Below, one piece after another: positions 48,459-62,985 of a DNA stretch of 64,000 nucleotides. Within the stretch, counting starts at the first letter, position 1; the number at the start of each line of letters is the position of its first letter. The notes under the pieces were generated by a model, which saw nothing but the letters and a program-made list of their open reading frames with translations, searched no databases and was not told the DNA's origin. A program made the translations under genes and the position numbers. The stretch is from assembly GCF_032444005.1 (NCBI RefSeq), contig NC_091282.1:1189594001-1189658000 (forward strand), given 5' to 3'. The DNA is from Ranitomeya imitator. Taxonomy: Eukaryota.

Positions 48459-50109
48459 CTGGACCAAAGTCTTGTGAATCGATCAACTCATCTCTAGTCC
48501 CAACTATCCCAGTAGAAGAAGAGATGGGGGCACCACGGTGCGTGTGACTCAAACCAGGCCTAGAAATTACCAAACATATACTAAGAAAGAACAGGTAGGC
48601 CTTACAAATGGGAGTCACCACCAGACAAATATGAAAACACAGCTTTATTGATAACAAGAATTTAACAAAAGGCAAAACACACTAAAAACATTAAAAACAA
48701 GGGGGTATACAATAGCCCCATATGTACTCAAGCCCAAAATAAGGCAAAAAGCCCACACAGACGTGAACAGGGTAAGACGCACGTACCTAGAGGGTAAATA
48801 AGCCTGATTGATAAATGACAAAATAAAGGAAAGCAATCTCAGCAAACCCCAAGTCTATACACCGTAAGTACACGTTATGAAAACCTGGGGATAGAATAAC
48901 ATGGCCAGCCACACACCATGTAATCAATGTAGCCCAATAGCCACTAGTAAAGATGGTGCTCAAGAAAGCAAAGAGCCGGTCATAAAGATATATAAATGCT
49001 GGGACCGCAAATAAGCACAAGTACGTTGTCAATTATCCTCCTATAGTCAGACCGTGCGCCCATAATAGGATGAAAGCATAGAGTGCCAGGATGACAACAC
49101 TCTAAACGCACCGATCGTAGGCAGGGCAGATAGGTAATGCATACCCAGTGCAGAGTAAGTGTGGGCTGCAGGCACCTAACGTGTGTCGCCACGCTCTGGT
49201 GGCTTCGTCAGGGGTAACGCCCACACAGTCAGCCCTGTGTTTAAATATAATAAGATAGATAGCTTACCGAGCTTCAGCTGTGCAGCGGCAGAGCGCGCCG
49301 CATGGAGAAGTACAAATGGCGATCGCACCCGCCGGGCCCGGCGTGTAGTCAGTGCGCATGCGCCGGCGTCCCAGAGCGGAAGTGAACGAGCCGCTCTCGG
49401 TCGTCAAGGCGACATGTACACAGTGGCAGATACGCTTGCGTGGAGACAGTCACAGGTAGAAATAGACAGACTGCAGAGACAGAGGGAGCGGGTATACTGA
49501 GCAGTACGGAGGCAGGATACGCCGTAACAAACAAAATGCCCTCTATGAGTACCAACAGATAAATAACTGGACACTAGTATGAGCCTAAATGGATCAGGCA
49601 AATGGGAACTAAAACGGCCACTAAGCTGAAGCAAACCCAAACAGTAAAACACACGCAATATAAGAAAAATGAAAAATAATGCATGAAAACCAAATCTAAT
49701 GAAAAAAACAAAATACATATATAAATAGATAAATGAAATTAAAGATAAATAAATACTAATTACATAAATAATGATACCCCACAGCATACTTATACAGGGG
49801 GCAAACTAATAAAAAAAAAGAGAAAAAAGGAATAAACAAAACATGACTATATACAGACATGTGTAGGAGCTCCAGCAGGGGGCAGAAAATAGCCAATTCC
49901 CCATATAGTCCTCCATGGGCAGGAAAGCCCCATGATGATGCACATATGTGCCAATGACGAGCTGGCCCCACTTAGGTTCATGTGGAGTACAGCCCAACAC
50001 AACGACCAATATTAAAACTTGACTCTCGTGGGTAAGTACGTGAAACGACGAGGAAAACAAACAATAGTACAGTGGCCAATATTTATCACACACCTATCAA
50101 TAGGAATAT

Positions 50110-50570
50110 TTATTGTTTATAGAAGCCAGTAAACAATAGATCTTTGTTCAAGCCTATAGGAACGACAGAATTCAGATCGAAGATCCACTTGGATTCTCGT
50201 TTCAAAAGTTCAAGGGTAACATTTCCGCCCCTCATATTCATTCGTACTGCTTCAAGTCCCAGAATCTTCGTGCCAGCCCATTGTGAACCATGTGCAACCA
50301 AAAAATGTTCAGCCACTGATGTAAGAGTTTTTCCTTTTGTCTTATCCCTCATAGCCGTTGAAATAGTGGAGAAATGTTGCTGTACGCGTCTCCTGAAGTC
50401 CTGTGTGGTTTGGCCCACGTACACTTTAGGGCATGGACAAACCAACGCATATACCAAATTCCGGGACCTGCAGTTGAAATAGGCCTTAGCAGGGGTCTGT
50501 GGAAATAAAGAAGGCACCATAATCTTCTCATCACAACTGGTGAACGGGCAAATGCTACAGTTTCCACATG
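50110..50570 (-). pseudogene. PLE GIY-YIG endonuclease C-terminal domain (left arm, 5'-truncated)
   Basis: CGNCSIC..NCRSRNLVYALVCPCPKVYVGQT..RRRVQQH..SVAEHF..KRESKWI..P.GLN, the Penelope GIY-YIG plus Zn-binding residues. Confidence 0.88.
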
Positions 50571-50577
50571 AGAAACC

Positions 50578-51257
50578 GTTGGGCATTATTACTATCTTTA
50601 ATAACCAGTGGCGGGATTTACGGGGCATCCTCTCTAAATATTGGGGCATTTTGCAGAGTGAGCCCAAACTTCTCCCCCATATTGCCCAACATCCCAATTT
50701 GATGGCTAGGAGGGCTAGGAGCCTGAGGGATTCATAGCCACTTTCAACGGCCGGTTACCAAACTCCGGAGAGGGGTTAGACTGATGGGGACTTTCCCATG
50801 TGGAAACTGTAGCATTTGCCCGTTCACCAGTTGTGATGAGAAGATTATGGTGCCTTCTTTATTTCCACAGACCCCTGCTAAGGCCTATTTCAACTGCAGG
50901 TCCCGGAATTTGGTATATGCGTTGGTTTGTCCATGCCCTAAAGTGTACGTGGGCCAAACCACACAGGACTTCAGGAGACGCGTACAGCAACATTTCTCCA
51001 CTATTTCAACGGCTATGAGGGATAAGACAAAAGGAAAAACTCTTACATCAGTGGCTGAACATTTTTTGGTTGCACATGGTTCACAATGGGCTGGCACGAA
51101 GATTCTGGGACTTGAAGCAGTACGAATGAATATGAGGGGCGGAAATGTTACCCTTGAACTTTTGAAACGAGAATCCAAGTGGATCTTCGATCTGAATTCT
51201 GTCGTTCCTATAGGCTTGAAAGAAGATCTACTGTTTACTGGCTTCTATAACCAATAA
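50578..51257 (+). pseudogene. PLE linker plus GIY-YIG endonuclease (right arm, truncated, internal stop)
   Basis: FNNQWRDLRGILSKYWGILQSEP.L..ARRARSLRDS* then the same GIY-YIG domain, ending ...GLKEDLLFTGFYNQ. Confidence 0.88.
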
Positions 51258-52158
51258 ATATTCCTATTGATAGGTGTGTGATAAATATTGGCCACTGTAC
51301 TATTGTTTGTTTTCCTCGTCGTTTCACGTACTTACCCACGAGAGTCAAGTTTTAATATTGGTCGTTGTGTTGGGCTGTACTCCACATGAACCTAAGTGGG
51401 GCCAGATCGTCATTGGCACATATGTGCATCATCATGGGGCTTTCCTGCCCATGGAGGACTATATGGGGAATTGGCTATTTTCTGCCCCCTGCTGGAGCTC
51501 CTACACATGTCTGTATATAGTCATGTTTTGTTTATTCCTTTTTTCTCTTTTTTTTTTTTTTTATTAGTTTGCCCCCTGTATAAGTATGCTGTGGGGTATC
51601 TTTATTTATGTATTTAGTATTTATTTATCTTTAATTTCATTTATCTATTTATATATGTATTTTGTTTTTTTCATTAGATTTGGTTTTCATGCATTATTTT
51701 TCATTTTTCTTATATTGCGTGTGTTTTACTGTTTGGGTTTGCTTCAGCTTAGTGGCCGTTTTAGTTCCCATTTGCCTGATCCATTTAGGCTCATACTAGT
51801 GTCCAGTTATTTATCTGTTGGTACTCATAGAGGGCATTTTGTTTGTTACGGCGTATCCTGCCTCCGTACTGCTCAGTATACCCGCTCCCTCTGTCTCTGC
51901 AGTCTGTCTATTTCTACCTGTGACTGTCTCCACGCAAGCGTATCTGCCACTGTGTACATGTCGCCTTGACGACCGAGAGCGGCTCGTTCACTTCCGCTCT
52001 GGGACGCCGGCGCATGCGCACTGACTACACGCCGGGCCCGGCAGGTGCGATCGCCATTTGTACTTCTCCATGCGGCGCGCTCTGCCGCTGCACAGCTGAA
52101 GCTCGGTAAGCTATCTATCTTATTATATTTAAACACAGGGCTGACTGTGTGGGCGTTA

Positions 52159-52200
52159 CCCCTGACGAAGCCACCAGAGCGTGGCGACACACGTTAGGTG
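52159..52200 (+). ncRNA. Degenerate minimal hammerhead ribozyme remnant in the PLE 3' region (mirror copy at ~49173-49214, minus strand)
   Basis: CCC-CTGACGA-A-GCCAC-CAGAGC-GTGGC-GACAC-ACGTT-AGG: CUGACGA and a 5-bp stem II are intact, GAAA is changed to GACA. Confidence 0.5.
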
Positions 52201-52819
52201 CCTGCAGCCCACACTTACTCTGCACTGGGTATGCATTACCTATCTGCCCTGCCTATGATCGGTGCGTTTAGAGTGTTGTCATCCTGGCACTCTATGCTTT
52301 CATCCTATTATGGGCGCACGGTCTGACTATAGGAGGGTAATTGACAACGTACTTGTGCTTATTTGCGGTCCCAGCATTTATATATCTTTATGACCGGCTC
52401 TTTGCTTTCTTGAGCACCATCTTTACTAGTGGCTATTGGGCTACATTGATTACATGGTGTGTGGCTGGCCATGTTATTCTATCCCCAGGTTTTCATAACG
52501 TGTACTTACGGTGTATAGACTTGGGGTTTGCTGAGATTGCTTTCCTTTATTTTGTCATTTATCAATCAGGCTTATTTACCCTCTAGGTACGTGCGTCTTA
52601 CCCTGTTCACGTCTGTGTGGGCTTTTTGCCTTATTTTGGGCTTGAGTACATATGGGGCTATTGTATACCCCCTTGTTTTTAATGTTTTTAGTGTGTTTTG
52701 CCTTTTGTTAAATTCTTGTTATCAATAAAGCTGTGTTTTTATATTTGTCTGGTGGTGACTCCCATTTGTAAGGCCTACCTGTTCTTTCTTAGTATATGTT
52801 TAGTCCCAACTATCCTGGA

Positions 52820-52993: not shown

Positions 52994-53180
52994 GTAAGGA
53001 AGAAAGGCCGTACTGGGCCTCCGGCCCTTGGGGGAGGCCGCCATGACAGGGTGACGTGGGTCAATAGGGAGCTCGTAGGAAGTTTGGGGGTATAGGGTTA
53101 ACAGAAGATAAGAGGAGGGACGGAGTTTTTTGAATTTGAAAAAGGAAGGAGGGGTCGGAGACAGGGCAGGGGGGGGGGCC

Positions 53181-53189
53181 TATATAAAA
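53181..53189 (+). promoter_or_regulatory. TATA box of the Ngaro element
   Basis: CCTATATAAAAGG, ~80 nt upstream of the ORF1 ATG at 53265. Confidence 0.6.
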
Positions 53190-53264
53190 GGTGGTGGCCA
53201 CGTGGAGGGGGCAACCATTTGGGTACTCACCAGCCACAGAAGAGAAGCTCCTTGTACCCAAGCG

Positions 53265-54534
53265 ATGGATGTCGATGCCTTGCTTCAGCAGCTCCGGGTG
53301 GAAGCAGCCGCCCAAGGGACGGATTGGCTGCAGGCTTCGGTGAACAGCCTGCTTCAGGGGTCGGTAGCCGGAGCCTCCATCGCCCCTCCAACAGGACCCC
53401 GACCGCGGAGGTCTCGGCCTCCGGCGCGCTTTAGTCCTGAGGCTACCCCCCGGGTCCGGCGCCGCATACGGAGCCCCTCCAGGGACCCTCCAGCCAGGGC
53501 CGGTGGACGCGGTCCCCCTGCTCCCCTCCCGCAAGCTGGGAGGAATCCATCTCACAGGCGGGACCTACAACAGGGGCCGGGTTTCCCCCCCCCCCCCCCG
53601 CGGCACAGAGGCGACGGGATCCAGGACCAGGAGCGGCGGGCGTCAGCGGCTCTGCAGGCCCCGCTCGGCGTGGAGGAGCGCGTGGAGGAGCGCGAGGAGC
53701 CAGGGGGCGGGCCCCTGTGCGGCGACGTCCCAGCAGCCGGCCGGCCTGTCTTCAAGCACGCCGGATGGAGCGGCGTACAGAGGATCGTCGGCTCTGGGAG
53801 CGATGGGGGCGGCTCCGGTGAGCAGCGGGCAGCGTTTGGCTGCCTCGGTCAGCAGCGCTGCAGCGGCGCCACTCTCCCAGGACTTCATCCAAGATGGCGC
53901 CGCTGCAGGAAGTACAGCACCACGTGGGAGAGGTCTCCGGCAAGATGGCGCTGGATCAGGGAGCCCGGCGCCTGCGCACCAGCAACAGGGACTACATCAA
54001 GATGGCGGCGCCCTGTGGAGACCTCCCCAAGATGGCGGCGCCCTGCAGATCACGGCGGCAGCTCCGAGGGGCCCTGCAATTCTTGCCGGTTCGCCTGCTT
54101 CTGGCGGTGGGCAGCCGGTGAGGCAGGTTGACCCGGGAGCTGCGGAGCCACCAGCAGACGGAGCCAGCATGGGACCAGCACGCCTTCATCAGGACCCAGG
54201 ACCTTCGGCTGCTGGGTTCACAGCGCCCAGGCAGCCAGGTGAGAGCCAGCAATTTACTAATTTTAACCCCTCCGTAGCTCCCAGTGAGAGTAGGGAACGG
54301 GAGTTATTTATGGGGGGGGCTAGCGGGGGGATGGGCCTTATATTACATGGCCTTAGAGATTTAGCCAGAATATGGTACGGGGGCCCTCAAGGGGGGGGGT
54401 CACCTGCAGCGGCGTGGTTAGGAATCGCGGAAGGGCCAGTGGGGACTGGGGGGTTAACAAGCCCTGAGGTAGTGTCGCAGTGTGGGGGCCAGGGTACAGC
54501 GGTCGCAGCTACATCAGGGGGGGGGCGGCAGTGA
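53265..54534 (+). pseudogene. ORF1/gag N-terminal low-complexity region (frameshifted)
   Basis: MDVDALLQQLRVEAAAQGTDWLQASVNSLL start, then a Pro/Gly/Arg-rich region. Frames change somewhere in 53503-54128 (C15 run at 53585-99 is a candidate) and near the G9 run at 54517-25. Confidence 0.65.
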
Positions 54535-55345
54535 AGCAGTAAGGGGGACGGGGTCAGCAGACGCGGGAGGCCAAAACGAAGGGGCTAGCAAAGATAAGGA
54601 AAATGAGGACACGGTGCGTCTGGATGATTCCGCTAGGAGCGAAGTATACGTTTGTTTTGAGGGACCGCTGGGGTCACATTTGCGGGAGGAGGTGAAGGAA
54701 AAGATCTGGAAGGGGGATTACGTAGATATTTTTTCATTACTGCCGTTGGAAAGATTTAATCTGGATAGGTTAAGAAGAGACGATTCCAAGAAAGATGATG
54801 AGGAAAGGAGGCGGTACCGCCTAATCCCTCGTTCTTTTTCAAACTGGTTGCAGGCGTTTGCTATATTGGCAAGCGTGATAGGCGAAAAGGCACCCGAAAA
54901 TTGTTCGGGACTTTTTTGCTATATGGACGCGATTGGGGAGGCTTACAGGGTATATGGCGGTTTGGGATGGTTAAGGTACGACGAGCAGTTCAGGCAGCGC
55001 AAAGCGGTACGACCAGGTATAAGTTGGGATCATAAGGATATAGCGTTGTGGATGAGAGTTATGGCACCGGTTAGAGCGAATCAGGGAACCCAGCCATTTC
55101 AGGGGGGTGCCGGGGGTTCAGGGCAGTCAGGACACTCGGTCGCAATGCAGAAGGGACTGTGTTTCTCATTTAATGAGGGGACATGTAGATTTGGGAGCAA
55201 GTGCAAGTACAAGCACGAATGCTCAAGTTGTGGGGGCACAAACGGGGCGGCTAGATGTTTCAGAGGGGGAAAAACAAGAGGGGGAGACGGTGCTGAAAAA
55301 AAGGGGAGACACCGGTGCGGCTGGACGCGATGGAAGCGTATCTAA
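54482..55345 (+). CDS. gag C-terminal domain with Cys/His zinc knuckle
   Basis: VKEKIWKGDYVDIFSLL, NWLQAFAILASVI, WLRYDEQFRQRKA, CFSFNEGTCRFGSKCKYKHECSSCGG. These are DIRS/Ngaro gag-like motifs. Confidence 0.85.
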   Translation: MGARVQRSQLHQGGGGSEAVRGTGSADAGGQNEGASKDKENEDTVRLDDSARSEVYVCFEGPLGSHLREEVKEKIWKGDYVDIFSLLPLERFNLDRLRRDDSKKDDEERRRYRLIPRSFSNWLQAFAILASVIGEKAPENCSGLFCYMDAIGEAYRVYGGLGWLRYDEQFRQRKAVRPGISWDHKDIALWMRVMAPVRANQGTQPFQGGAGGSGQSGHSVAMQKGLCFSFNEGTCRFGSKCKYKHECSSCGGTNGAARCFRGGKTRGGDGAEKKGRHRCGWTRWKRI

Positions 55346-56895
55346 ATAGATACCCAGATGTGGCAGCAGCGTCACTTTTGAGGGAAGGTTTTGGTTACGG
55401 TTTTAAAATTCCGTTTGTTGAGCAGGATGTTTGTTTGTCAAGAAAGAATCTAAAGTCGGCACTGCAGTTTCCTAGCGTTGTTTCTGAAAAATTGAAAAAA
55501 GAGGTTGATTTGGGTAGGATGGCCGGACCTTTTCCAATGGCTCCAATCAGTAATTTAAGGGTGTCACCGCTAGGAGTAGTTCCGAAGAAGGAGCCTAACA
55601 AATTTAGGCTTATTCACCATTTATCCTTCCCAAAAGGTCTGTCAGTAAACGACGGTATTGATCCTCAACTGTGTGCAGTTTCTTACATGTCTTTCGATGC
55701 AGCGATTAATCTGGTACGGTTGTGTGGTAGGGGTGCTGTGATGGCAAAAACGGATATCGAGGCGGCGTTTCGTCTGTTACCAGTGCATCCGGAGAGCATG
55801 CACCTGTTGGGCTGTTTTTGGGACGGAGGTTTTTTCATTGATCGTTGTCTTCCCATGGGCTGTTCGCTATCATGCGCCTATTTTGAAACGTTTAGTACAT
55901 TCTTGGAATGGGTTGTTAAGGATGTATCTGGTTTGAATTCGTGTCTGCATTATCTTGACGATTTCTTGTTTGTAGGCCCGCCACAGTCCGCGGCTTGCTC
56001 GATTCTACTGCACACAATGGAGAGGGTAGCAAAAGGTTTCGGAGTTCCATTAGCGGCTGATAAAACGGTTGGGCCGGTGACGACACTAAGTTTTCTAGGC
56101 ATAGAAATTGATACCGTTGCAATGGAATGTAGATTGCCTGATGACAAATTAGTCGCTTTTCGGGAAGAAGTGAGAAAAGCGTGTACCCGGCGCAAGATAA
56201 CGCTGCACGATTTGCAATCTTTATTGGGCAAGCTGAACTTTGCTTGCAGAATTATGCCAATGGGCCGCGCATTTTGTCGCCGTTTGTCTTTGGCGACTGT
56301 GGGGGTAAAGTCTCCCCTGCATTTCATCAGATTGACTAAGGAGTTGAAACAGGATTTGAAGGTGTGGGCTCTTTTCTTAGAGGAATACAATGGCAAATCC
56401 ATTTGGATTCAAACAGTGGAAAATGCAGTAGATCTAGGTTTTAGCATTAACGTGATTGAAAAGCGTGGTTTCAATTTGAGGTATCGCGGTCAGGTGTTGG
56501 TGGCGGAGTGGCCACTCGATTGGCGCGAACGAGGTTTATTACAAAACCGGGTCCTATTGCAGTTATTTCCTCGAGTAGTGGCGTTGTCAGTGTGGGGCGA
56601 GTCAGTGATGAATAAAAAGATCTGTTTTTCTTGCGAAAATGTGACTGTCGTGGAAGCCATCAATTCGCTGTCTGCAGCGTCTCAAGAAGTAGTTAGGGTA
56701 CTGCAGCACTTGGTTTTCGTGGGGCTAAAGCTCAACTTGTGGATTGTAGCAGATTGCAAGGCAATTGAGCCTACTAATGCTGATGATGCTCTTTTCCATT
56801 CACAGTGGCATCAGTCTCAAGGGCCGAGGCCTTACTTGGATTCATTGTGCCGGGAATGTCCAGCGGAGCTATGGAACCTGCCTTTAGGGCCGTGA
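55297..56895 (+). CDS. Reverse transcriptase plus RNase H-like domain
   Basis: Open frame from just after TGA at 55294-96. SPLGVVPKKEPNKFRLIHHLS, KTDIEAAFRLLPV, LPMGCS.S, HYLDDFLF (YLDD at 55951), LSFLGIEID, SLLGKLNFAC. Confidence 0.93.
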   Translation, partial: KKGETPVRLDAMEAYLNRYPDVAAASLLREGFGYGFKIPFVEQDVCLSRKNLKSALQFPSVVSEKLKKEVDLGRMAGPFPMAPISNLRVSPLGVVPKKEPNKFRLIHHLSFPKGLSVNDGIDPQLCAVSYMSFDAAINLVRLCGRGAVMAKTDIEAAFRLLPVHPESMHLLGCFWDGGFFIDRCLPMGCSLSCAYFETFSTFLEWVVKDVSGLNSCLHYLDDFLFVGPPQSAACSILLHTMERVAKGFGVPLAADKTVGPVTTLSFLGIEIDTVAMECRLPDDKLVAFREEVRKACTRRKITLHDLQSLLGKLNFACRIMPMGRAFCRRLSLATVGVKSPLHFIRLTKELKQDLKVWALFLEEYNGKSIWIQTVENAVDLGFSINVIEKRGFNLRYRGQVLVAEWPLDWRERGLLQNRVLLQLFPRVVALSVWGESVMNKKICFSCENVTVVEAINSLSAASQEVVRVLQHLVFVGLKLNLWIVADCKAIEPTNADDALFHSQWHQSQGPRPYLDSLCRECPAELWNLPLGP

Positions 56896-57765
56896 AGGAG
56901 CTATTTGCTAGATCACTGTCAGAAAGGTCTTGGCTGCATTACGAGCAGGCCTGGAGTACATGGGAAAGTTGGAAGGTGTCTTACGGGTCCGTTATGGACG
57001 ACGAGAGCAAGCTGCTGTTGCTAGTAGGGCATGTGTGGGAATCGGGTTGGTCGGTGTCCAAAGTGAGTAAGTTTCTAGCTGGTTTAGCATTTGGTTTCAG
57101 GGCTAGAGGTTTAAACGATGAGACGAAATCATTTATGGTAATGCAAGCGGTAAAAGGTTTGAAAAAAGGGCAGAAGTCGTTCGATGGTAGACGACCGGTC
57201 TCCTTTGAGGTGCTGTTGACAATCGGAAGGCAATTACGAGCGGTTTGTTTTTCGGATTGGGAAGTAATTTTATTCCAAGCGGCTTTTGCGTTGGCGTTTT
57301 TTGGGGCATTTCGCTTGGGGGAGTTGGTTAGCCCTTCAAGATTTAAGGGAGGAGGTTTACGGAGAGAAGACGTGGATGTTACGTCTGACAAGGTAGTGGT
57401 GTTTATTAGGTCGTCAAAAACGGATGTAACTGGCAAAGGGTGCAAATTAGTGTTATTTCAAGTTCCAAATTGTCCATTGTGCCCGGTAATCTGCGTGGAT
57501 AGGTTGATGAGAAGAGGGGGTGTGTTATCCGATCCACTGTTGGTTCATGCAGATGGTTCGTTCTTGTCGCGCTACCAATTTGTTTCAGTTTTTCGGAAGT
57601 GTTTGGAGACGGGGGATTTCGCCAGCGAAGTATAGCGGCCATTCATTCCGGATAGGGGCTGCAACGGAAGCAGCTAGGAGAGGGTTGGGGGATGAAGTGG
57701 TTAAAAGAATTGGGCGGTGGGAATCGGAAAGGTTCCGGTCTTATGTTCGCCCGGATCTGGTTTAA
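56855..57765 (+). CDS. Tyrosine recombinase (one frameshift at the G run ~57611-15)
   Basis: AFFGAFRLGE (Arg), SKTD (Lys), HSFRIGAAT (HxxR), GRW, RSYVRP (catalytic Tyr). Confidence 0.9.
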
Positions 57766-57832
57766 TTTTACATGGTCACGTATTCGGTGGGTTTTCTCCA
57801 AATGATCGGTGTCAATGTTTATTCTCTTACAG

Positions 57833-58428
57833 AACACGATAGAAGGCTGGTGTGGATAATGGGACACTCGTTCGTGTTCTTGGTGGCGGAGAGGGCAGCG
57901 GTTCGCCCGGATGGCCGCCAATTGGGGTTTTCGCGGGACGTCACAATGCTGAGATGGATCGGGAAAAGGGGGATGACATGGAGTCAATTTTTACCGGACT
58001 TCCATCGTTTCGTGCGTTGGGACCAGGTCCCACAAATTTTAGTTATTCACCTGGGGGGTAATGACCTCGGGAAAAGGCCATGCAGGGAACTTATAAAAGA
58101 TATTAAGTTCGACGTATTGAGGTTATGGGCGATGTTTCCAAAGGTCTTGGTAGTGTGGTCGGACATCGTACCGCGGAAGGTTTGGCGGGGTGCTAGGTCA
58201 CCAGAAGGGGTGAACAGGGCAAGGATTAAGGTAAACAAAGCTGTTTCGAGGTTCATGGCAAGGAACGGAGCGGTGGTGGTGCGTCATATAAATTTGGAGT
58301 CCGGTACGGGAGGTTATTGGAGGTTGGATGGGGTGCACTTGAATGCAGTTGGTACCGACATGTGGTGTCTGGCGATCCAGGAGGGCATCGAAACAGCTTT
58401 GAAGGTGTGGAGGGACATAAATGGCTAA
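57833..58428 (+). CDS. SGNH/GDSL hydrolase (esterase) domain
   Basis: Block I WIMGHSF, block II GKRG, block III HLGGNDL, block V DGVH: Ser/Gly/Asn/Asp-His are all present. No good ATG precedes block I; a splice acceptor does. Confidence 0.88.
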
Positions 58429-58791
58429 GGGGTTAGTACATTTATGTTTGTGGCTGGGGTGGTGGTCCTCGAAGTTGGTGGAAGTGGAAAATGGCGGATT
58501 GCCGGGGGGGGGGGGGGATCTCAATAGGTCCTGGACTCCCCGGGGTAATTTGAAATGGTAAAAGGGGTATGGATAATCCCGTGGAGGGGATTATTGGGGG
58601 ACCCACAAACTGGTGTGCGGTTTTGGCCTGGCGGGTGGAGTTTGCCTCCGAGCTGGTGCTTAGCGGCTGGGGGTAAGGCGGTTATAAGGCCAAAATAGGT
58701 GGGACGGTTGGCTGAAAAACGGTGGTTTCGGGCTTCGAGGACCATCCACTTCCGGGGTTTACTGTTATTATATTGTTGTATGTTAAATTTT

Positions 58792-58797
58792 AATAAA
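58792..58797 (+). terminator. Polyadenylation signal of the Ngaro element
   Basis: AATAAA after a T-rich tract, ~360 nt past the SGNH stop. Confidence 0.55.
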
Positions 58798-59682
58798 CGG
58801 CTGCTGTGGCCAATTAATCCAATTTAATTGTCGTGTGTTTAATAGGGGGTTAATCCTCTGTCGCAGGAAAGGGGGAGGTGGCCGTTACTCCGGGGTGTCA
58901 TAAGGTAAGGTAAATGGTTTTATATGAGAGCTCACAGGAGTCACGGATACCCGTTGTCAAGTGAAGGGGACCCTCGGTTGCTCCCTCTCTCCTTTATGTC
59001 GGGCATGTGTCCCACATGCTTTGCTCTGATAGTTTGGCTATGTATTAATGTATTACTGTTATGAACTGCTGTTTTATTGCTGTACGTGTACTGTGTGATG
59101 TTTACCTGATTTCATGTCTTTGTATTATATTGCACTGTATTGAACATGACTAGTTCAGAGACAGTAAGGGTTAACAAAAATGAGCTGGTATAGCAGCCTG
59201 GAAGAAGCAGCAATTTCCTGCTTCTGCAGCAGAGCCCGGGCAGACTTGCCCATGTCAAGACATGCTCCTCTGATGGGAGCATAATATACCCCGGGAGGGG
59301 AGAAAGTGCTGCCAAGAGGACAACTGGGCAGCTGAAATGGGCATTAAGACTGTGTGAGTGCCCCATAAAGGACTGTTTGCTCACTGAAACTGGACAGGAG
59401 CTGCTGAAGCAGAGTATCTGGATAGGGATAGCTCAGGAACTGTTATCATTTCTCTTTTCACCGTTATTAAAGATCTACTGTTGGGAAAAAACTGTGACTT
59501 CGTGGTGCTTCCTGGGACTAGAATTTCAGCAGACACAGTGAGTACCCATCTCCATGTGCAAGGTGCCAGTGTGTTCACTGACTGTTGTATAATAGACTCG
59601 TCCACGACTACCACCCCATGCCACCTTGTTACATATGCATATATCTGTATGTATAGGCTCTGTGAATACATATATGTGCATT

Positions 59683-60777
59683 TGGAGCGCCCCCAGACGC
59701 AGGGCCGCGGGGTACTCAGTACCGGTCCTCTCTGTCTCAGTCCTGGGGTTGTCATGGTGGCTAGACCCGGTCCGTGACCCTGCTAAGGGGCGTCCAATGA
59801 AAGGTGATGAAAGTTTGTCAAGTGTTCGTGACGCCACCTTTGGTATTTGGTCAGGGTGACAGACGCTGCTGACCAAATACCAAAGGTGGCGTCACGAACA
59901 CTTGACAAACTTTCATCACTGAAGGCTTCAGCATCCACAGTCCAGGGTGCCGGATCACAGGGTAGGCAGAGTCCGGCCGGTCTGATGGCAATTCCAGAGT
60001 CCCTTTATCCAGGTGGAAATCAGTAGCCTACACCTTGCACACAGTAACGTAGTAGGTCCCTATGTGCATTAGCCCTCATAGGGTCCTCACTCTTGTTACT
60101 CTTCTCTCGGTCCCCCAGATGGATAGGACCAACCCGTATGACGGTGGTGGCCTGAGGCTATTTTATAGGGACCCTAGCGTCACCCCTCCTCCACGTTGCC
60201 ACCTTGTCTGCTTAGGTTCTTAGGTCGGGCAGCCAACTTGGAATCGACTGTCCTGCCAGTCTCTGAAGTAAAGCATAGAGTCTATTACTCCCTCGGTGTT
60301 CAGGCCACCGGCTCTGCGCACAGTGGTAGGCAGCCTGCTTCTAGCTGGTCTCCCACTGGTGTTATAGTCCTGTTGCTACGACTTCGGTGCTCACTCACTA
60401 TGGCACACTTCCTTTCTTGTCCTTCCTTAGGAGTTTACCGCAATCAGGTGCAGGCGCAGCTCCATATCCTTCATTCCTTCCTGGGCCGAGCCCAGTCTTC
60501 TCCTCTCCTCTCCTCTGACTATCTCCTTCTCCCTCCAGTCAGCTTCTCCTCCAACTCCAACTGACCTCACTTCCTAACCAAACCCCCAGTTTTACTCAAG
60601 TGTGAGGAGTGGCCTAATAGATAGAACCTTTTTCTCCCCCTGGTGGCTGGCGTGTGAAGTGTGTGTGTGGCTGTGATACCTGGCAGGTTGAACTCCTTTG
60701 GTGCCATCAGACATAACATCGCTCCCCCTGGTGGAAGAACGACATTACTGCAACGACCAGGACTCTCAGGCGCTGCA
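59683..60777 (+). mobile_element. Solo LTR (1.1 kb) with an internal fold-back
   Basis: TGGAGCGCCCC...GGCGCTGCA, flanks CATT/CATG (TSD with one mismatch), and colinear homology to 46054-48458. Confidence 0.82.
59804..59919. repeat. Perfect 51-bp inverted repeat with 14-nt loop
   Basis: 59804-59854 is the exact reverse complement of 59869-59919. Confidence 0.95.
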
Positions 60778-60829: not shown

Positions 60830-62985
60830 CCCCTTTCTGACATTAGACATACTATCCTGTCGAGGTGGCATGGGCCCGTATGACCACCGACGGGATAGTG
60901 CTTCTAACGCGATCAGCCGCACTCACGGGGGGAGCGCAGCCAATTGCGGCCAGTTGTCAGCTGACTATCACAGCTGACATCCGGCACTATGTGCCAGTAG
61001 CAGTCATGGACCACTCCAGGCATATTAACCCCCGGAACACTGCGATCCGGGGGCATAGGGATGCATCGCACAGGGAGTGGGCTCCCTGCATGCTTCCCTG
61101 AGACCCTCGGTACAACGCGATGTGATCGCGTTGTACCGAGCTTCTCCTCCATGCAGGCCCCGGATCCAAAATGGCCACGGGGCTCCTTCTGGGTCCAGCA
61201 GGGAGGTGGCTTGCAAGCCTCCTGCGCTGCCTGTCAGATCACTGATCTGACATAGTGCATTGCAAAGTGTCAGATCAGCGATCTGACACTATAACATGAT
61301 GTCCCCCCCGGGGCAATGTTATAAAGTGAAAAAAAAAAATTACATGTGTGAAAAAAAAATAAATTCCTGAATAAAGAAAAAATATACATATATTGTTCCA
61401 ATAAATATATTTCTTTATCTAAATTAAAAAAACAAAACAATAAATGTACACATATTTAGTATCGCCGCGTCCGTAACGACCCGTCCTATAAAACTTTCCC
61501 ACTAGTTAACCCCTTCAGTGAACACCATAAAAGAGGCAAAAAACGACGCTTTATTATTATACCGCCGAACAAAAAGTGGAATAACATGCGATCAAAAAGA
61601 CGGATATAAATAACCATGATACCGATGAAAGCGCTATCTTGTCCCTCAAAAAAACGAGCCACGATACAGCGTCATCAGCGAAAAAATAAAAAAGTTATAG
61701 TCCTCAGAATAAAGTGATGCAAAAATAATTATTTTTATATAAAATAGTTTTTATCGTATAAAAGCGCCAAAACATAAAAATTATGGAATGTGGAATGGTA
61801 TAAATGCCCCCCCCCCCCCAAAAAAAAAAAAAAAAAGAAGATCATGAATAGCTGGTTTTTGGTCATTCTGCCTCACAAAAATCTGAATAAAAAGCGATCA
61901 AAAAAATGACGCATGCCCGAAAATAGTACCAGTAAAAACGTCAACTCGTCCTGCATGACTCTGTGGACCAAAATATAGAAAAATTATAGCTCTCAAAATG
62001 TGGAGACGCCAACACTATTTTTTACAATAAAAAGCATCTTTTAGTGTGTGACAGCTGCCAATAAAAAAAACCCACTATAAAAGTAAATCAAACCCCCCTT
62101 CATCACCCCCTTAGTTAGGGAAAAATAATAAATTATTTTTTTTTTCATTTTCCCATTAGGGTTAGGGTTGGGGCTAAAGTTAGGGTTAGAGCTACAGTTA
62201 GGGTTGGGGCTAAAGTTAGAGTAAGGGTTGAGGCTAAAGTGAGGGTTAGGGTTGGGACTGAAGTTAGGGTTAAGGCTACAGTTAGGGTTGGGGCTATAGT
62301 TAGGGTTGGGGCTACAGTTAGGGTTAGGGTTGGGGCTAAAATTTGGGTTAGGGTTGGGGCTAAAGTTAGGGTTATGGTTGGGGCTAATGTTAGGGTTGGG
62401 GCTAAAGTTAGGGTTAGGGTTGGAGCTAAAGTTAGGGTTAGGGTTGGGGCTAAAGTTAGGGTTTGGATTACATTTATGGTTGGAATTAGGGTTAAGGGTG
62501 TGGTTAGGGTTATGGTTGGGATTAGGGTTAGGGGTGTGTTGTAGTTGGGGTTTGGTTAGGGTTGGGATTAGGGTTAGGGGTGTGTTGGGGTTAGGGGTGT
62601 GTTGGGATTAGGATTAGGGGCATGTTCGGGTTAGGGGTGTGGTTAGGGTTATGGTTAGGGTTGGGATTAGGGTTAGGGGTGTGTTTGAGTTAGGGTCTCA
62701 GTTAGAATTGGGGGTTTCCACTATTTAGGCACATCAGGGGCTCTCCAAACGCGACATGGCGTCCGATCTCAATTCCAGCCAATTCTGCGTTGAAAAAGTA
62801 AGCTGCGTTGAGCTCTCCCATGCGCCTAAACAGGGGTTTACCCAACATTTTGGGTATCAGCGTACTCAGGACAAATTGCACAACAACATTTGGGGTCCAA
62901 TTTCTTCTGTTACCCTTGGAAAAATACAAAATTGGGGGCGAAAAAATCATTTTTGTGAAAAAAATATGATTTTTTTATTTTTGCA
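60830..62985 (+). mobile_element. Non-autonomous piggyBac-type element, right end missing
   Basis: TTAA|CCCCTTTCTGAC at 60826. Colinear with 28520-30700 through the telomere-like array and the first 390-bp unit, then truncated. Confidence 0.8.
62155..62705 (+). repeat. Interstitial telomere-like array with an 18-bp higher-order unit (GTTAGGGTTGGGGCTAAA)n
   Basis: Direct reading; ~550 bp of TTAGGG variants. Confidence 0.93.

Follow-up and report, generated by a model that had tools for sequence, protein, structure and literature searches.

Layout of the element

We analyzed a stretch of 64,000 nucleotides from the poison frog Ranitomeya imitator (assembly GCF_032444005.1, contig NC_091282.1, positions 1,189,594,001 to 1,189,658,000; hereafter the window), in which the region 53000-58961 is a Ngaro retrotransposon. 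Its open reading frames (ORFs) follow the order gag-like ORF1 with a CCCH finger, reverse transcriptase (RT)/RNase H, tyrosine recombinase (YR) and SGNH hydrolase, and they are flanked by repeat A1 on the 5' side and repeat B1 on the 3' side (Table 1). The split direct repeats A1-B1-A2-B2 are complete in the sister copies L170, L171 and L173; the window copy carries A1 and B1, stops after B1 and is without A2-B2. At least 40 copies of 90-100% identity are present in the R. imitator genome (5.96 Gb). The original prediction for this locus, made from the DNA letters, held that an env-like splice joins the N-terminal part of ORF1, ORF1(N), directly to the SGNH esterase. As set out below, this fusion is very probably one of three proteins that the element makes from one promoter and a single phase-1 donor at 54238. 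ORF1 proteins of relatives are continuous (598-715 aa), and the Gag core and zinc finger are kept in unspliced ORF1 and cut out by both splices.

Table 1. Features of the Ngaro element in window coordinates (the slash in motifs marks the splice boundary).
Feature	Coordinates	Strand	Basis
Split direct repeat A1, TATA-like box near 53181	53000..53251	+	A1 again after B1 in 14/29 sister loci; TATA match
Shared first coding exon: N-terminal helix hairpin (~35 aa) and disordered Arg/Ser/Pro/Gly-rich linker	53265..54238	+	Sister frames; structure models of homologues
Splice donor G/GTGAG, phase 1, T-rich stretch after	54238..54243	+	GTGAG in 31/31 anchored elements
Gag core and CCCH zinc finger	54473..55345	+	Pfam zf-CCCH, E 3.7e-4
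RT/RNase H ORF	55297..56895	+	Pfam RVT_1, E 3.9e-9
Second acceptor TTCACAG/TG, exon start 56806, phase 1 to recombinase frame	56791..56806	+	Conservation; RefSeq model P0271
Tyrosine recombinase ORF, frame of window copy broken near 57630	56806..57765	+	326-codon frame open in sisters L170, L172, L173; homologues
SGNH acceptor: pyrimidine tract and CAG, exon start 57833, 14 nt before codon for L of LVW	57810..57833	+	YAG in 41/41 elements
SGNH hydrolase exon, 197 full codons, GHS/GGND/DGVH intact, predicted isoelectric point (pI) 10.97	57833..58428	+	Pfam Lipase_GDSL_2, E 4.4e-7
Split direct repeat B1, AATAAA near 58793	58451..58961	+	AATAAA 320-370 nt past SGNH end in 21/22 elements

Conservation of the donor and the SGNH acceptor

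The proposed donor CCAG/GTGAGA, with the exon ending at 54238, is in phase 1 whether read in frame 53368 or from ATG 53803, and the drop in GC content described at this point is found as well, from 0.68 in the 300 nt upstream to 0.47 at +7 to +50, with a T fraction of 0.40 after the donor (+7 to +40) versus 0.15 upstream. ATG 53803 is the sole ATG of the window copy that reaches the donor in phase, as had been stated for its frame, and a start there gives a predicted 343-residue fusion without the hairpin. The assumption that a single upstream indel interrupts ORF1 is not borne out: there are two breaks, one at a C-run near 53590 and one near 53735, and the reading is spread over three frames. 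Of 28 sisters that could be mapped, 9 keep an uninterrupted frame between the first ATG and the donor, always in phase 1. None of the sister ORF1 frames reads to the Gag end; the break sites vary and lie at G and C runs, and may in part be assembly error.

Viewed in the window copy, the element holds 2 MAG/GTRAG matches and 8 acceptor-like sites, where 300 block shuffles give 0.59 and 3.8, so that a single copy proves little and the proof has to be carried by cross-family conservation. Sister copies, which have the donor GT in 28/29 cases and the acceptor in 29/29, also say little on this point because they were chosen by similarity. For the family comparison, 40 further elements were selected manually among the 215 matches that two divergent queries gave; together with the window copy they fall into 14 families when grouped at 85% SGNH DNA identity (pairwise identity has a median of 61% and goes down to 55%).

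This comparison bears out both predicted sites together with their phase. At the SGNH acceptor, a YAG ends 14 nt before the L of LVW in phase 1 in 41/41 elements from all 14 families, the next commonest AG offset occurring in 16/41; T is found at -6 in 41/41 and at -5 in 40/41, and the pyrimidine fraction is 0.72 compared with 0.45-0.48 in the flanking coding DNA. At the donor, 34 elements with a Gag core could be used, 31 of which were anchored on a protein motif before the donor, while three are deleted, interrupted or truncated there; the anchor pattern was composed after the sites were known and does not require the GT. All 31 anchored elements carry GTGAG, even where the encoded residue differs: in 5 elements from two families the exon ends in C or T, which turns Gly into Arg or Cys, and in all 5 GTGAG is intact and followed by T at +6. 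Where Gly is encoded at the donor its codon is GGT in 26/26 cases, versus 60/247 in the Gag core. A changed residue alongside an intact GTGAG and T at +6 is expected when U1 pairing, not the protein, is under selection, and the donor pattern across families therefore fits selection on U1 pairing rather than on protein.

The acceptor ...TCTCTTACAG/AA likewise lies where it had been placed, with the exon starting at 57833 in phase 1 and AA followed by HDRRLVWIMGHSF. Its description as following the YR stop holds for the natural stop TAA at 57763-57765, 67 nt upstream; the YR frame of the window copy also breaks earlier, near 57630. The claim that SGNH has no convincing ATG of its own needs a similar qualification: in-frame ATGs exist here at 57772 and 57802, but they are not conserved. 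These two ATGs, the presence of such ATGs in 18/40 relatives and the existence of stand-alone SGNH calls of ~190-230 aa (P0116) speak for a reading in which SGNH is translated alone, either from an RNA that begins at an internal promoter or at a local ATG where ribosomes re-initiate past the YR stop, with the splice-like sites incidental and the fused models artefacts of annotation. We consider this very improbable, as in-frame ATGs are absent in 22/40 relatives and elsewhere scatter from -1 to -116 codons, the invariant features (T tract, YAG) are non-coding, and the same junction comes back in 13 genera as well as in an intron of 47 kb (see below).

The SGNH exon is full length in 35/41 elements, and its ratio of nonsynonymous to synonymous substitution rates (dN/dS) is 0.05-0.08 in 3/7 family pairs, the other 4 pairs being saturated. 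The catalytic Ser (block I), Asn (block III) and Asp-x-x-His (block V) are present in the window copy and in most active families. A structure model of the homologue P0013 has the three-layer SGNH fold, with a predicted local distance difference test (pLDDT) score mostly >90 across the domain; it gave 157 PDB matches at E <= 0.001, those listed being SGNH/GDSL-type proteins or designed scaffolds, while a PDB sequence search with SGNH returned nothing significant. At the other end of the protein, structure models of one fusion and of Gag contain a two-helix hairpin (~residues 2-36, pLDDT ~90) followed by a disordered linker (pLDDT <50); the hairpin region had no Atlas match. As the folded Gag core and the zinc finger lie 3' of the donor, the fusions inherit only the hairpin and the Arg-rich linker.

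A second acceptor for the recombinase

The donor at 54238 also serves the phase-1 acceptor at 56806, which the original prediction missed and which gives an ORF1(N)-recombinase; the picture of a single fusion thus stands for ORF1(N)-SGNH and is incomplete in that the same donor feeds the recombinase as well. CAG is present at this acceptor in 33/36 elements, with 29 at identical offset and phase. Model P0271 (XP_069614324.1) matches the R. imitator genome at 100% and runs from CAG/GTGAGC to TCACAG/TG across a 2523-nt intron in phase 1. In 9/19 long YR matches the donor motif stands directly ahead of the YR leader, and the additional 27-46 residues found in some isoforms are the start of the YR frame.

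Two other candidate sites were rejected. A short intron directly after the donor, ending at TAG 54277 or CAG 54284, would measure only 39-46 nt and is not conserved, and the extra isoform segments are accounted for by the YR leader. Nor is the donor-like site at 58904 conserved, any such site being found in 4/22 elements.

In a separate case, the RefSeq model P0283 leads from donor 54238 through a cryptic RT exon to the 56806 acceptor and then, via a donor near 57062, into a host metalloproteinase gene, an example of how Ngaro splice sites can rewire host transcripts.

Junctions in frog gene models

A search for longer SGNH relatives yielded 47 matches, 44 of them full-domain. Using a hairpin profile built solely from unspliced Gag proteins, we found the hairpin combined with SGNH, without Gag core or YR, in 33/44 full-domain matches and in 28/138 further representatives. 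ORF1(N)-SGNH fusion models come from 13 genera (Ranitomeya, Phyllobates, Anomaloglossus, Bufo, Hyla, Dendropsophus, Eleutherodactylus, Rhinoderma, Leptodactylus, Engystomops, Rana, Hyperolius and Xenopus), the splice sites in the other frogs being deduced from the proteins. In toad, treefrog and ranoid models the junction lies at the homologous place, and after it there mostly come one residue with a G-initial codon and four more residues, then LVW. At Bufo bufo LOC121003196 the isoforms XP_040290783.1 (YR) and XP_040290798.1 (SGNH) are identical for 298 aa and diverge at the donor, and at B. gargarizans LOC122926745 ORF1(N)-YR and ORF1(N)-SGNH isoforms are identical for 231 aa and again diverge at the donor. 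Given the way in which RefSeq annotates, several isoforms at one locus would imply transcript support. Full-length Gag proteins could be anchored in 13/22 cases, and in 7 of these 13 the matching place shows the imprint of read-through, [PS]G[EK].

In Xenopus models the exit from Gag is at a site of the same type, and the YR leader stands between it and SGNH. A three-exon route of this type (ORF1(N), short recombinase leader, SGNH) might be the usual one, with the direct 54238-57833 splice being minor; it is used by the Xenopus models P0157, P0163/P0327 and P0166 and by the isoforms P0010, P0014, P0018, P0036 and P0038. Direct two-exon models are, however, commoner among neobatrachian matches, and R. 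imitator families do not share a conserved second donor in the YR leader, so that we regard a predominant three-exon route as quite unlikely.

Four low-share runs from three studies, consisting of contigs that are possibly DNA and cover the element patchily, contain no joint at either junction; one 157-nt contig in them spans the SGNH acceptor unspliced, and three contigs of another family (like L135) match 54199-54244 only; none of these observations was weighed either way. An exact two-motif pattern for a processed copy with the SGNH junction had 0 matches in the R. imitator genome.

A candidate host gene derived from the spliced fusion

Model P0041 (XP_069604253.1) maps at 100% to the R. 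imitator genome as two exons 47 kb apart on C2, with a phase-1 donor CCAG/GTAAGG and an acceptor that, like the Ngaro SGNH acceptor, has the -14 offset. The intron contains only RT relics and, ~570 nt after, a 46-codon cassette exon at the position expected for the YR leader; the Phyllobates orthologue of this cassette exon has a weak profile score (8/200 shuffles as high). The gene is part of a cluster at C2:180.04-180.23 Mb (L101-L120) with exon 1 in three copies and several SGNH exons, of which some are broken, and exon 1 of P0041 is found at at least 3 places, all within this cluster. A separate full Ngaro lies in the same cluster, and model P0005 splices between this Ngaro's own donor and acceptor.

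The SGNH domains of the candidate host gene form one clade (support 100/99 with 7 rows; Shimodaira-Hasegawa-like approximate likelihood ratio test, SH-aLRT, 98 with 10 rows by a quick method), whose members from Hyperolius, Dendropsophus, Rhinoderma, Anomaloglossus, Phyllobates and Ranitomeya branch roughly in host order. Throughout the clade the block III Asn is lost, and in several members the catalytic His is lost too. A single-locus frog gene with these exons and decaying catalytic residues likely represents domestication.

An alligator model (P0043) and a relative (P0267) join a UEV-domain protein, which we take to be TSG101-like, to a Ngaro-type SGNH exon, a possible host exonisation through the SGNH acceptor. 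The proteins P0133, P0134, P0147, P0149, P0153 and P0159, of 1300-3100 aa, contain 3-6 SGNH domains that resemble those of Ngaro; P0133, from a gecko (Sphaerodactylus) gene for which several isoforms are listed, possibly reflects a second domestication, in reptiles.

The proposed splice programme

Cross-family sites and phase, the homologous junction in frog gene models and the two-exon host gene together support the predicted ORF1(N)-SGNH splice. We infer that the RNAs are made and translated, in which case unspliced RNA would give full Gag, the splice from 54238 to 56806 the ORF1(N)-recombinase and the splice from 54238 to 57833 the ORF1(N)-SGNH esterase. All three products would begin with the same 35-residue helix hairpin and Arg-rich disordered linker, whose most probable purpose would be that of a common tag bringing recombinase and esterase into a Gag-RNA particle, where the basic esterase could bind or hydrolyse membrane lipid, as the ZfL2-1 LINE (long interspersed nuclear element) esterase does. 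The case for hairpin and linker acting as a shared assembly tag appears evenly balanced, and a lipid-binding role of the SGNH fusion is conceivable, if slightly less favored.

Several points weigh against the programme. The gene models are automated, and similar pipelines also produce mosaic models via cryptic RT sites (P0002-P0004). No gene model of the direct 54238-57833 junction was found for the exact family of the window copy, and the data examined contain no RNA read that spans either junction. The families share ancestry, so the conservation counts are not independent. The acceptor at 56806 overlaps the RNase H Gln-Trp codons, with CAG in 33/34 compared with a background of 119/164, and because of this overlap its conservation is weak evidence when taken alone; moreover, 20/36 YR frames have an upstream ATG, and the window copy has its two in-frame ATGs ahead of SGNH. 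The tag and lipid roles, finally, are argued by analogy.

The splices could also be real and mainly attenuate the element or serve the host, the fusions having no role in retrotransposition. Splicing does delete RT and the Gag core, a host-locus fusion with decayed catalytic motifs exists, and, according to the excerpted text of PMC7192593, SGNH is missing altogether from some Ngaro lineages. This reading is nevertheless unlikely in view of the strong purifying selection on SGNH in multi-copy families, its full length in most of the compared elements, the exactly kept phase and the use of the donor for the recombinase, which the element needs.

Other features of the element and the window

The Gag core has no clear fold match (best Z 5.5, root-mean-square deviation 3.6, 76 aligned; Foldseek none at E <= 0.001). 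At 55290-55345 the RT frame is +1 relative to Gag, with a conserved TPV upstream of the first ATG, and no acceptor-like site was seen ahead of RT, where the region is purine-rich. A Pfam scan of the RT ORF, run without a dedicated methyltransferase profile, gave no methyltransferase match. At 56400-56895 the RNase H motifs look decayed in the clade of the window copy and the overlapping YR acceptor is retained; 9 elements lack the pattern HVPG...ADxLSR, presumably an RNase H motif, and the families concerned still have young copies. In the sister copy L006/L007 (C5:625.85 Mb) the segment corresponding to 56640-58244 is tandemly duplicated, so that both acceptors occur twice.

Elsewhere in the window, a two-part inverted repeat at 48569-52804 (arms of 1257 and 768 nt, 99%) surrounds an ORF with a GIY-YIG match (50727-51257, E 2e-4) and is likely a Penelope-like element in inverted duplication. 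A perfect 51-nt inverted repeat with a 14-nt spacer lies at 59804-59919, and a degenerate TTAGGG-rich array at 62114-62714 resembles an interstitial telomeric repeat.

Relation to known systems and significance

The founding Ngaro paper by Goodwin and Poulter from 2004 is said to mention spliceosomal introns in some elements. We found no description of a natural Ngaro splice in the searchable literature, which excluded that paper and a 2015 review, and there is none in the available portions of PMC7192593, PMC6681497, PMC9341512, PMC4495291, PMC9004415, PMC3266345 and PMC4276936. There is some chance, though a rather small one, that an earlier published note on these splices exists; likely, the programme is a variant of known subgenomic splicing that is broader than the original prediction saw.

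The comparisons that follow draw on excerpts of the cited papers. Amphibian Ngaro elements such as DIRS-53_XT share the four ORFs (gag-like, RT/RH, YR, SGNH) and the A1-B1-A2-B2 repeats, but there the ORFs are treated as separate and overlapping (PMC9210276), whereas in the present element YR and SGNH would each serve as a second exon to ORF1. The same excerpts describe the Ngaro hydrolase as being without proven function and contain neither 'splic' nor 'intron' (PMC9210276), and only 'some' Ngaro elements encode the hydrolase (PMC7192593). The ORF1 protein of the LINE ZfL2-1 forms a coiled-coil dimer, carries an Arg-rich motif, shows esterase activity and associates with anionic liposomes (PMC3905857). 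It shares with the Ngaro fusion an N-terminal helical domain, an Arg-rich segment and a basic SGNH esterase (PDB 4C1B; fold match E 3.8e-7), with a pI of 10.8 close to the value predicted here; it differs in being one continuous ORF of an element without long terminal repeats (non-LTR) and in its long dimeric coiled coil (PMC3905857), in contrast to a short predicted hairpin, joined by splicing and with a separate Gag alongside.

Like env of retroviruses and Drosophila gypsy, the last ORF would be expressed from a spliced RNA without gag-pol (PMC4276936). The term 'env-like' fits the splice layout and not the protein, which has an SGNH fold behind a disordered linker and is no membrane-fusion glycoprotein; the Ngaro fusion also keeps ~320 ORF1 residues, env a short leader, and a second acceptor serves an integration enzyme. 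In the co-option of DIRS1 ORF1 by LAP2alpha and ZNF451, coding sequence of a tyrosine-recombinase element likewise became a host exon via splicing, but in that case an existing host gene acquired a DIRS1 gag domain (PMC4495291), whereas in the candidate frog host gene both coding exons and the junction come from the element's own splice programme.

These results bear on how overlapping downstream ORFs of tyrosine-recombinase retrotransposons are translated and on what purpose the Ngaro hydrolase serves. If true, the programme would redefine the native recombinase and esterase as proteins with ~300 extra N-terminal residues each, which matters for expressing them or for designing a Ngaro mobility assay. 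It would also identify dozens of frog RefSeq genes with misleading names (IF-2-like, polysialoglycoprotein-like, MARCKS-like) as transcripts of Ngaro elements, and it points to a candidate domesticated frog gene that is likely unreported. The comparison with esterase-type LINEs suggests that the same helix, Arg-rich and esterase layout was reached by different routes. As a whole, and tentatively, amphibian Ngaro elements from Xenopus to poison frogs may use a conserved splicing resembling that of complex retroviruses, in which the hairpin would tag Gag, recombinase and a lipid esterase for co-assembly into a membrane-associated particle, and the tag-esterase pseudo-enzyme domesticated in neobatrachians may act on such particles.

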